A stretch of 64,000 nucleotides of DNA, taken from NCBI GenBank assembly GCA_903839035.1, contig CAIMAQ010000111.1, positions 10,968 to 74,967 of the forward strand, written 5' to 3'. The stretch comes from an uncultured Opitutia bacterium. Lineage in GTDB: Bacteria; Verrucomicrobiota; Verrucomicrobiia; Opitutales; Opitutaceae. The position numbers were made by a program. Of this stretch, positions 1 through 3,000 are shown in pieces (positions within the stretch are counted from its first letter, which is position 1; every line of letters starts with the position of its first letter).

Positions 1-3000
1 CAGTCCGTTTCGCGCCGAGGCCCAAGCAAGATTTAAGCGACCGTTTAGCGAAAGGCTCCGTCGCTGGCTCGCCGCGCAAACCATCCCTTTTCCCGCCCGG
101 TTTCGGGTGGCGGCCATCGTCGGCCGCGCAGTTAGTTTTCTCCGTCCCCTTCTTCCTCGCGCCCTGCGGCCCATGTTAGATTTGATCCCCGCCACCTTGC
201 CACCCGCCGAATCATGGGGTGAAGTAACTCCGGCGATTGGCCCGCGACGCGCTCGCGTGGCGCTGCTGACAGGTTGCGCCCAGCAGGTGCTCGCCCCCGA
301 TATCAATACCGCGACGATTGCGGTACTGACGCAGCAGGGAGTCGAAGTGGTGGTCCCACGTGAACAAGGTTGCTGCGGCGGCTTAGCCTGGCACACCGGC
401 GACCGTAAGGCGGCGCAGGCTTTTGCGCGGCGCAATCTCGCGGCTTTTCCGACTGAGGTTGACGCTATTCTCACCAACGCAGCTGGGTGCGGCTCGGCCA
501 TGCACGAATATCACTTGATTTTAAGCGGCACAACCGATGAAGCGAGCGCCGAAGCTTTCCGTCATCGCGTCCAAGATGTCAGTTTATTTCTAGCAAAACT
601 CGGGTGGCGCCAGCCCACGGATTCACCGCAAAAAAAGCTCCGCGTCGCCTACCACGACGCCTGCCACCTCGCCAATGCCCAAGGGGTACGAGCCGAACCG
701 CGGTCGTTGCTCGCCACCATTCCCGGCATCGAGCTTCTCGAGCTCCCAGATGCGCATCTTTGTTGCGGTAGCGCCGGCACCTATAATCTGGATCAACCGG
801 CTATAGCTGCTGGTCTTGGGGCGCAAAAAGCTCGGGCCATCATCGCCACCGGCGCCGAAGTTTTAGCCTCAGGCAACATCGGCTGTCTCACGCAACTCGA
901 CGCCCACCTCCAAAAACTTGGTTCGCCAGTTCGAGTACGGCACACCATGCAAATCTTGCGGGACGCGTACCAATAGTACTTTTATCGATGGTCTGGGATC
1001 GTCCCAGTCTGAACGGATCCCTTTTTTCGGTCCAACCACTAGCGGGCGGTGAAGACGAGAACATAGGATGAGAGCCATGGGCATCCCCACGCGCGGGACG
1101 CCTAAGTTCACAGTGCGCACTTCGCTCAGTGAGCGGCTCCATCAAACTCCACCTTGCCGTTGCAGATCGGGCTCACTTGGTCGATCAAATCCTCATGGCT
1201 CGGGTGAAGAACGGTGAAATGTGATTCGCTCACGCTGAGGACCGGGTTGCGCGATGCGAGCGAACGCCGGATTTCGAGGTCAATCCGGCACTATGGGACT
1301 GGCGGCAAGGGCCGCGGAGGAGAACCCCAAGGCCAGGCAGACCGGGAGCAGAACCTTTTGGTTCATGAAAAGGGGAGGACGCTCTCCATCACCTATCGGC
1401 AAACTTTAGCGAGGCATGGCCATTTAGGAGTTGGCGACAGCGGACTCGATCTGCGCAAAACCTCGCATGTCCCCCGGCAGGGCAAGGTAATTTGTATACT
1501 CGCGGCACGCTCCAGCCGATGCCGTGTTATCGCTGGTTAAGCCTCATCACCAGGCCGAGGGCGCAGTGGCCACAGGATCGCATCCAATTCGCAATAAATC
1601 ATATTGTCGCTGATCTTCATTGGGAGGATTGTGTTTCAGAATTGGTGACGGTGTGCGCGACTGATCAGATCTTGGCCGGTATGGTCCAAGGTCACGAATC
1701 GAGACGGCAGTAACTGTTGGGCAAACCCCACATCGCCCCCACGTCCATTACACAGATGCGAACTCACAGGTGTGTTTATTACACCCCGGTTTGATGGGTT
1801 CAGACTAGACGTCGGTAGGAGTATTGTGAGTTACGTAATGCGTAGCCATGACACCCCATCACAACTCTGCACGGGGAATTGTCACGGTCAGCATTCTTGA
1901 GCGCAACGAGACCCTGCGCCACAATCTGTCAGTCGTTTTGTCCCGTTGCCCCGGCGTGGTGGTATTAGATCTCTGCGCCGGACTAGAGCAGGGAAAACGC
2001 TGCATTCATGAACGTAAACCCTCCGTGCTGGTGGTTGGCGACAAACCGGCCGATGGCGACGACTGGGACATGCTGATCGCGGCGCGCAGCCTGGCGCCCA
2101 ACGCATTCATCATCGCAATTTCCGACCTGTGCAATTCCGACCATTTGAAATGCGCCTTTCGGCAGGGAGCGGTGAGCTATTTGTTGCGCAGCACGGCGGC
2201 CATTGAGATTCATCAGGCCTTGGTCGCGGTGACCAACGGCGGTGCCTGGATGTCGCCAAGTCTTTCCCTCGTACTGGTGCGATCCATCGCGGAGCCGCGC
2301 AAACCGAGCAGCCGGCTCACCACTTTGTCCAAACGCGAACACGAGGTGCTGAAACTGTTGAGCTCCGGGGCCCGCTACAGCGAAGTGGCGAATCAATTGG
2401 AGCTGAGCCGCGATACCGTGCACTCGCATGTGAAGCAAATTTACCGTAAACTGGTCGTTCGCTCGAAGACTGAGGCCTCGCTGATTTTCAATAGCAGCTA
2501 CTTCCCCGACGAACTCGCCCGCTCCGCCTAGTCGGACCGCATGGCCGGGACGACCGGCGCATCGGGGTCATTACCACGGTCCCCGTCGGCCGCTGCTTAC
2601 TTTGTATCACCCATATTGGTGAGAGATTTGGGATGACGTTTGCGCAGCATAAACCTTGGGGCATGACATGGCCAGAATCCACCCATGGCTATCGATGGCA
2701 GCATTCGCGCAGAGGTTCAGGCGTACACCGCCAAGCAAGGGGTAGACGCGCCGATCGCGGATGCCATCCGCCAAGAAGGGCGCTTTCAGGGTCAGACGGT
2801 GTTGGAAATCGACGTAAACTCGGCGGCCCAGGATGCCGCCGAGGAAATGAGCTTCGCCGCCGCTGAGACGGTTGAGAAAAAACTATCCGAACGCAAAGCG
2901 GGTTCGAAGGAGGCGCTCCGCCTCAGTGCCGCCGAACTGCCCCAAGAGGTCAACTCCACGGCGGAGTCGCAGCAAAACCGCAAGCTGCATGAGTTTATGG

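Follow-up and report, generated by a model that had tools for sequence, protein, structure and literature searches.

Which signal, and which protein, would switch on the secretion genes of this locus? The stretch analyzed here (the window) is 64,000 nt of contig CAIMAQ010000111.1 (positions 10,968 to 74,967 of the forward strand; assembly GCA_903839035.1) and is a Ysc-type type III secretion system (T3SS) island of an uncultured freshwater Opitutae bacterium (Verrucomicrobiota). The initial annotation had noticed a 16-bp palindrome, TCACC-N6-GGTGA, ahead of four T3SS operon starts and proposed it as the operator of a T3SS regulon with a LuxR/NarL-type protein as its probable binder; all the computational tests that we ran agree with this proposal. 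We put a probability of roughly 0.7 on the overall explanation, in which the palindrome (the box) is the operator of an Opitutae T3SS regulon, is bound by a dimer of a NarL-family protein, and activates four operons. That the box is a functional cis-regulatory site is very highly probable. The candidate regulator, the boxes, and the operons that follow them are listed below.

1848..2531, + strand: candidate box-binding regulator, NarL/VraR-like, with an apparently degenerate receiver and a GerE/LuxR-type helix-turn-helix (HTH) domain (Pfam GerE, alignments).
2607..2622, + strand: box 1, TCACCCATATTGGTGA, before the sctW operon (pattern scan; orthologous boxes).
2685..10700, + strand: operon 1, with sctW (HrpJ), tyeA, a sycN-like gene, yscX, a TPR chaperone (yscY), sctV, a CesT-like chaperone, sctC, and sctD (Pfam, table of open reading frames).
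10703..10718, + strand: box 2, TAACCCAAACGGGTGA, 3 nt after the sctD stop codon and before the yscE/sctF...sctU operon (pattern scan).
10791..22137, + strand: operon 2, with a yscE-like gene, two sctF genes, a TPR chaperone, sctJ, sctK, sctL, the sctN-sctU regions, and an lcrR-like gene (Pfam, table of open reading frames).
22146..22161, + strand: box 3, TCACCCGAATAGGTGA, before the gene for a 973/993-aa protein and the translocator operon (pattern scan).
22225..31908, + strand: operon 3, with genes for 973-aa, 126-aa, and 1051-aa proteins, an LcrH-like TPR chaperone, and SseC-like (SctE) and SctB-like translocators (Pfam, homologues, synteny with loci L092-L094).
36849..36864, + strand: box 4, TCACCTGAATGGGTGA, before the second chaperone-effector operon (pattern scan).
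36946..45216, + strand: operon 4, with two CesT chaperone-effector pairs, the first with an RGS-domain effector (1046 aa) and the second with an ABC1-kinase-like one (1371 aa) (Pfam).

The Pfam scan of the island's open reading frames (ORFs) covered all but the sctN-sctU block (~14580-21623) and a few small ORFs; the block was assigned by synteny with Pfam-annotated orthologous loci.

A scan of the whole window for T[CA]ACC-N6-GGTGA returned these four sites and no others, exactly as the sequences and coordinates had been given. The four loci count as seven strand-matches, because three of them are perfect palindromes; over 100 shuffles, the mean was 0.14, with no shuffle above 2 and hence none at seven. 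In the ORF table, each of the four sites falls in a gap between long + strand ORFs, which bears out the earlier placement in non-coding DNA, and no full-pattern match falls in coding sequence. By hand count from the same table, such gaps make up roughly 5% of the island (the first 50 kb). The boxes end 63, 73, 64, and 82 nt before the proposed start codons at 2685, 10791, 22225, and 36946, as first reported. Allowing one mismatch in the strict palindrome added only two sites, both coding (11505 and 12649), with 2.0 expected by chance. We also built a weight matrix from 23 Opitutae sites, which themselves score 18-27 bits. Scanned over both strands of the 64 kb, it found nothing beyond the four boxes at ≥12 bits (0.55 matches in shuffles). 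Four of the six apparent operon starts in the window are preceded by a box. One detail of the first description needs correction: the GAAT spacer and the GAATCAAG that follows are common to sites 3 and 4 (22146 and 36849), and not to sites 2 and 3.

Next, we compared the island with related loci, collected from the contigs of regulator homologues and from scans of one genome per species and of JGI metagenomes. The nearest relatives are uncultured freshwater Opitutae, and the more distant ones include the rice endophyte Opitutaceae bacterium EW11 and a Horticoccus sp. Among the Opitutae loci compared, whose regulators are 42-84% identical to that of the window, the same four promoters have retained the box while the flanks have diverged. 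It precedes sctW in 12 loci (the window plus L012, L013, L015-L020, L098, L099, and L101) and yscE in 7 (the window plus L013, L015, L016, L017, L019, and L020). For box 3, which we traced through homologues of the first translocator-operon gene, there are 4 loci (the window, L092 at 9922, L093 at 9923, and L094 at 9919), and L093 and L094 carry extra boxes ahead of lcrR or CesT-lcrR. For box 4, homologues of the chaperone at 36946 led to 2 loci, the window and L106. There the chaperone is 80% identical, the box and the next 22 nt are nearly identical (one substitution), and both flanks have diverged.

In more distant Opitutae loci, where a hybrid histidine kinase gene is transcribed divergently from the regulator gene, a box is also found between the two. 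In L016 (~9790-9916; also in L017, L019, L020, and L101), this box reads TGCCCNAAAYGGGTGA on the kinase strand and is followed one turn later by a third half-site, GGTATG, and then by a strongly conserved GCAACTGCGGTAGAT. A third half-site (GGGTGA or GGGATGA) is also seen between box 1 and its downstream TTG in the sctW promoters. Such additional half-sites in both kinds of promoter hint at binding by more than a dimer.

Alignment of 22 sites from the window and orthologous loci gave the consensus T1 [C/A]2 [A/C]3 C4 C5 [C/t]6 R7 A8 A9 Y10 n11 G12 G13 T14 G15 A16, in which positions 1, 4, 5, and 12-16 are invariant. The box is therefore best described as a 16-bp imperfect dyad, T-M-M-C-C-C-R-A-A-Y-n-G-G-T-G-A, formed by two inverted heptamers with 2 bp between them (7-2-7), and a dyad of this length with mirrored arms is present in all 27 sites collected. 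It is also directional. The gene-side GGTGA arm never varies, the distal arm is TCACC, TAACC, TCCCC, or TACCC, and the spacer is nearly always RAAY on the coding strand. In the left arm, 13 sites have A and 9 have C at position 3, and 18 have C and 4 have A at position 2; right-arm positions 14 and 15 stay invariant and do not compensate for these changes. Information content peaks at the box and at a second short element downstream, and is low elsewhere, including the flanks.

That second element is a TTG, which every one of the 27 sites has exactly 17 or 27 nt 3' of the box. Sites of one promoter class all use the same offset, and the two offsets are one helical turn apart. At offset 17, the sctW class (12 of 12 sites) and the effector class have TTGCGC, TTGTCG, or TTGTAT. 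The yscE, translocator, and lcrR classes use offset 27, with TTGACC, TTGACG, TTGCCG, or TTGTGG; all 7 yscE sites have TTGACC or TTGACG. With the directionality of the box, its RAAY spacer, and the apparently degenerate receiver of the candidate regulator described below, this element refines the earlier description, whose palindromic pattern stands. The copies in the window are as follows.

2640..2645, + strand: TTGCGC, candidate -35, 17 nt after box 1 (offset conservation, information profile).
10746..10751, + strand: TTGACC, candidate -35, 27 nt after box 2 (offset conservation).
22189..22194, + strand: TTGACC, candidate -35, 27 nt after box 3 (offset conservation).
36882..36887, + strand: TTGTAT, candidate -35, 17 nt after box 4 (offset).

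No canonical sigma-70 promoter was found 3' of any of the four boxes when the four gaps were scanned, which fits activator-dependent promoters. If TTGnnn were the -35 element, the start codons would lie 0-10 nt past the predicted transcription start for boxes 1-3 and ~29 nt past it for box 4. At box 3, in both the window and L092, the start codon comes only 30 nt after TTGACC. No Shine-Dalgarno-like sequence is visible at the box-preceded starts. We also considered a class II arrangement with a -10 element ~20-26 nt after the box (CATAAA, TATAAC). These sequences are not conserved in the orthologues, and the arrangement was dropped for the invariant TTG.

We then analyzed the protein encoded at 1848-2531. 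Its C-terminus is a GerE/LuxR-type HTH (Pfam PF00196, E = 5.8e-15, residues 159-211), and residues 12-212 align full length with VraR (5hev, 3.6e-15) and NarL (1a04, 4.4e-15). The N-terminal region gave no Pfam Response_reg match at E ≤ 0.01, yet it is covered by the VraR and NarL alignments, and the 45%-identical orthologue P0004 has a Pfam REC match. Relative to NarL, D13/D14 are replaced by E/R, D59 by G (with an Asp one residue later), and K109 by R; in P0004, the phospho-acceptor position is Ser/Asn. With the acceptor Asp, the acidic pocket, and the Lys lost, the protein would be an atypical NarL-family member, probably one without phosphorylation. All four closest relatives share the same recognition helix, DTVHSHVKQIYRKL. 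Its His and Ser align to K188 and V189 of NarL, which we take to be the base-contacting residues in the NarL-DNA structures.

Close homologues are rare, with only four among 5.8 billion proteins, and the regulator gene lies directly 5' of sctW in every related T3SS locus recovered. Other neighboring regulators vary by locus; L003, for example, has a LytTR response regulator, and L011 has a hybrid histidine kinase with a REC-GerE protein. No other DNA-binding protein was detected among the Pfam-scanned island ORFs. Nor was a histidine kinase detected among the scanned ORFs near the regulator or in the island; L011, a distant orthologue, has a divergent hybrid kinase. To our knowledge, the Ysc-family systems studied so far use AraC-type activators (ExsA, LcrF), and none of these was detected among the Pfam-scanned ORFs of this Ysc-type island.

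Pattern scans also returned regulators of other lineages with the same DTVHSHVK helix, several of which have a box nearby. In three contigs from peat metagenomes (L102-104), a LuxR-type gene encoding an autoinducer-binding domain and GerE lies beside luxI, with TCCCCTAAACAGGTGA in the luxR-luxI gap. In five Nevskiales genomes, genes for a response regulator (29-31% identical) and for a 7TMR-DISM kinase come before TCACCAATTCAGGTGA or a near variant of it, and in one of these loci (L049), this site is found 54 nt before the gene for a cadherin-like surface protein. A Polaromonas metagenome-assembled genome (L081) has TCCCCCAAACAGGTGA ~100 nt 5' of a response regulator gene, at 26 bits. Across 1.2 Mb of non-Opitutae loci, the matrix gave 14 matches at ≥16 bits against 0.8 in triplet shuffles, and 5 against 0 at ≥20 bits. 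Orthologous copies of a single site recur among these 14 matches, which therefore do not count as independent: five are a single orthologous Nevskiales site, and five are a single Variovorax site (GACCCCGAATGGGTGA, in 5 genomes), which lies inside coding sequence and was discounted as evidence. About five lineage-independent sites are left, namely the Nevskiales site, two sites in L049, L081, and L072/L073, the last counted on score and not on position. The remaining excess supports a pairing of this type of HTH with this box.

Two further observations concern these relatives. In the peat contigs, the LuxR gene (L103 312-1106 and L104 2357-3151) has an in-frame stop between its autoinducer-binding and HTH domains, and contigs of separate samples have the same stop; a pseudogene, a split gene, or read-through could each explain it. 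Arrays of ACCC/GGGT half-sites, e.g., TACCCGAAAATCACCCATTCGGGTTA, occur in L007 (222-262, 3248-3300) and L014 (4490-4530, 7530-7580). They precede a 53%-identical regulator homologue, and also an operon upstream of it that encodes a 7TMR-DISM kinase and a NarL-type regulator, with no T3SS genes alongside. These arrays are related to the box and more complex; they are suggestive, but we kept them out of the matrix.

Taken together, the adjacent 1848-2531 protein is the probable binder of the box. We propose that its dimer would contact the box through the GerE-type HTH, with the invariant GGTGA half-site turned toward the promoter, and would turn on four operons, two for the apparatus, one for the translocators, and one for effectors. 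We lean toward activation over repression. How the bound protein might act is a more tentative matter. If TTGnnn serves as a -35 element, the center of the box would fall near -60.5 or -70.5, on the same face of the helix, much as for class I activators that touch RNA polymerase from upstream. The two spacings, one turn apart, are compatible with an upstream activator bound to one helix face. For the TTG as a -35 element with class I geometry, we see slightly less than an even chance, and activation by the regulator through that geometry is just as tentative. Since the phospho-acceptor Asp is missing, activity of the regulator would probably be set by its amount, a partner, or a ligand, and not by phosphorylation.

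Could the box be a real T3SS operator that is bound by a different transcription factor encoded elsewhere, leaving the adjacent NarL-like protein with some other role? Palindromes of 16 bp are bound by many HTH families, the promoter of the window's own regulator has no box, and some relatives have other regulators nearby, as in L003 and L011. However, those neighbors change from locus to locus, whereas the NarL-like gene is always directly before sctW; the 7-2-7 layout with CCC/GGG-rich arms is of the NarL-family type; and the same box accompanies the same recognition helix outside T3SS loci. We therefore regard a different factor as unlikely. Somewhat less probable again is a repressor or anti-activator role of the adjacent regulator at the box, in which the T3SS would be kept silent until a signal removes the protein. 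NarL itself represses at frdA from a 7-2-7 site (PMC4549865), and in the distant regulator/kinase gap the box would overlap the -35 element if TAGAT were the -10. At the T3SS promoters, by contrast, the box stands 17 or 27 nt upstream of the TTG and never overlaps it or the DNA beyond, and repression is less likely because of this. The one-turn phasing is typical of activators facing polymerase, and with no recognizable -10 element, the promoters look activator-dependent.

Two conserved elements at a fixed distance within each promoter class, together with the absence of a canonical sigma-70 promoter, could also recall the hrp box read by HrpL, with GGTGA and TTG as the bipartite promoter of an alternative, extracytoplasmic function (ECF)-like sigma factor. 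A single sigma factor reading both elements could not fit two spacings 10 bp apart. Furthermore, a -35 element has no need of a dyad with a conserved distal arm (T1, C4, C5), the Pfam-scanned island ORFs include no sigma-factor family, and the hrp box is absent, all of which make such a promoter very improbable. An RNA-level role (hairpin, terminator, or attenuator), or a dispersed repeat with no regulatory role, is hardly credible. The dyad could form a stem of 5-6 bp, and box 2 does begin 3 nt after the sctD stop codon, but no copy is followed by a T-run, and a terminator scan was negative at the boxes. The left-arm substitutions (position 3 A to C, position 2 C to A) are never compensated, which favors recognition by a protein over an RNA stem, and the box is confined to promoter gaps and held at orthologous positions.

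Known promoter elements gave no better account. The hrp box (GGAACC-N15/16-CCAC) and the PIP box (TTCGB-N15-TTCGB) have 0 matches each in the window, in line with the earlier remark that the motif resembles neither; by sequence and length, the box does not appear to be a tts box, an ExsA site, or a classical 20-bp lux box either. A sigma-54 reading of GGG...TTGC after box 1 was also rejected: the window copy and some orthologues fit GG-N10-GC, and other orthologues have GT or N11. No match to TGGCAC-N5-TTGCW with ≤2 mismatches lies near any box in the window, and no AAA+ activator domain was detected in the Pfam-scanned island ORFs.

Several observations weigh against the operator explanation that we prefer, or against parts of it. 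The apparent operon starts at 32135 and 45348 have no box, even a degenerate one (≥12 bits), as the initial annotation had also seen by eye, and the region 5' of the window's own regulator gene has none at the same threshold. Most non-Opitutae regulators with the same helix, e.g., those of ~25 Variovorax loci, have no intergenic box within 10 kb. No convincing or conserved -10 element is seen 16-18 nt after the TTG hexamer, and this makes the class I geometry uncertain. The transcription start predicted for box 3 would coincide with the start codon, which would make the mRNA leaderless. Finally, the proposed link between protein and box draws on association and on family precedent.

A bolder reading would turn some of these features into the rule. 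The box with its TTG at +17 or +27 would define a dedicated promoter class, in which a NarL-type pseudo-receiver protein is the obligatory recruiter of polymerase, a -35-like TTG works without a -10, and the mRNAs are leaderless or nearly so. The helix-box pair would then be an ancient module that can be moved between proteins, and Verrucomicrobiota and Proteobacteria would have combined it with inputs of three kinds: pseudo-receivers, true receivers, and autoinducer-binding domains. We consider this doubtful. If it were true, scanning for the box would show which effectors, RGS-domain and kinase proteins among them, environmental Opitutae inject into eukaryotic hosts.

The two boxless gaps carry short repeats of other kinds, as had been noted before. 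These are CGATAATTTCG and CCGATAATTCGACG in the gap at 31909-32134 and AGTGGCGC[T/C]GTT, twice, in the gap at 45217-45347. The sole orthologue of the first gap, in L106, is 98% identical and therefore too close to judge conservation. Ahead of the regulator gene, the half-site GAATTGGTGA (~1639-1648) was considered, scored below threshold, and is not counted as a site. A second palindrome, of the form GGTGT-N7-ACACC with a common core of TTACACCCCGG, occurs as GGTGTGTTTATTACACCCCGG at 1769-1789, before the regulator gene, and as CCGGGGTGTAATCATTACACCCCGG at 50575-50601, before a 1599-aa ORF (50641-55440). In a sister strain (L001/L002), it has one arm substitution, and the other Opitutae loci showed no copy of it. 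A further regulator, one that acts on the T3SS regulator gene, could bind there.

Some features of the island itself deserve mention. Large putative effector genes stand beside genes for CesT-type chaperones at 32621-35698, 37456-40596, 41101-45216, and 45348-47615, and Pfam finds in them two RGS domains, one ABC1 atypical kinase, and one Ser/Thr protein kinase. These eukaryote-like domains suggest a eukaryotic target for this freshwater Opitutae bacterium. Two tandem SctF paralogues (11036-11314 and 11363-11635), both weak T3SS_needle_F matches, are present; the duplication is also found in L003 and not in L011. In co-occurring strains, the regulator is 100% identical and box 1 is kept, and sctW is truncated by an insertion sequence element with an rve transposase (L001 3720-5445). 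In one such strain, the sequence runs straight into the genes for 356-aa and 1599-aa proteins (window 49172-55440), so that the whole T3SS and effector island (~46 kb; window ~2685-50640) has been lost.

Full-text searches for T3SS regulation in Verrucomicrobiota found no paper. The rice endophytes EW11 and LW23 are described as carrying a T3SS, whose presence is only noted (PMC7251102). A regulon box with a NarL-family regulator for a T3SS is apparently undescribed in this phylum. It is mainly through regulon boxes of this kind (hrp, PIP, tts, and the SsrB palindrome) that effectors have been discovered and the timing of host attack understood. For this island, there are now a proposed operator that can be tested, a candidate master regulator, and a weight matrix, with which genes behind a box could be picked out as candidate effectors in complete Opitutaceae genomes such as EW11 and Horticoccus. 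Under the control of a degenerate-receiver NarL-family regulator in place of an AraC-type one, this Ysc-type injectisome would also illustrate regulatory rewiring after spread to another phylum. The gain is practical and incremental; the mechanism is conventional, and the understanding of T3SS regulation is unchanged.

How does the box compare with known systems? Established T3SS regulon boxes include the hrp box (HrpL), the PIP box (HrpX/HrpB), the tts box (TtsI), and the ExsA site, and their regulators are ECF sigma factors or proteins of the AraC or OmpR type. Like these, the box is a short signature before apparatus and effector operons that can be used for effector finding, but both the regulator class and the sequence differ. 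A classical lux box has 18-20 bp, and 12 bp separate its arms (CT-N12-AG). Here too, a dyad would serve a GerE-type HTH dimer, with arms that contain ACCT/AGGT, and in the LuxR/LuxI pair of L102-104, which has the same recognition helix, a 16-bp box is found where a lux box would be expected. Unlike LuxR systems, the window's regulator has no autoinducer-binding domain.

The layout itself is that of NarL/NarP of Escherichia coli. The NarL heptamer is TACYYMT; the distal heptamer of our box, T-M-M-C-C-C-R, fits it in part, and the proximal arm, read on the other strand as TCACCYn, does not. NarL output domains bind 16-bp 7-2-7 sites as dimers, such as the engineered site TACCCCTAAAGGGGTA (PMC4549865). 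The spacing is identical (two inverted heptamers plus 2 bp, giving 16 bp), and the engineered site and the L019 box TACCCCAAACGGGTGA are equal at 11 of 16 positions. The outer bases are GGTGA here and GGGTA in NarL sites, the regulon is a T3SS and not nitrate respiration, and the equivalent of D59 is absent. By sequence comparison, the box is a NarL-type layout with an apparently different specificity.

By analogy, the functionally closest case is SsrB with its palindrome in SPI-2 (a Salmonella pathogenicity island), an analogue of the Opitutae system and not a member of the same group. SsrB of SPI-2 and of Sodalis SSR-3 recognizes an 18-bp 7-4-7 palindrome before T3SS operons (PMC2837388). 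In both cases, a NarL-family regulator is encoded inside the T3SS island, and a degenerate palindrome precedes apparatus, translocator, and effector operons. The SsrB palindrome likewise appears as conserved islands in drifting promoter DNA, with a well-conserved half-site in constant orientation to the gene and a second one that may be degenerate (PMC2837388). Compared by layout and not by heptamer sequence, the Opitutae box differs in that it has 16 bp in a 7-2-7 arrangement and is rich in C/G. The receiver of SsrB is a normal one that can be phosphorylated, with SsrA as the cognate kinase, whereas here the receiver appears degenerate and the window has no adjacent kinase gene among the scanned ORFs; and SsrB serves an SPI-2-family T3SS in a gamma-proteobacterium, as opposed to a Ysc-type system in Verrucomicrobiota. 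A dedicated regulon box with a NarL-family regulator for a T3SS is thus known as a general kind, and what is new is the Verrucomicrobiota host and the apparent pseudo-receiver.

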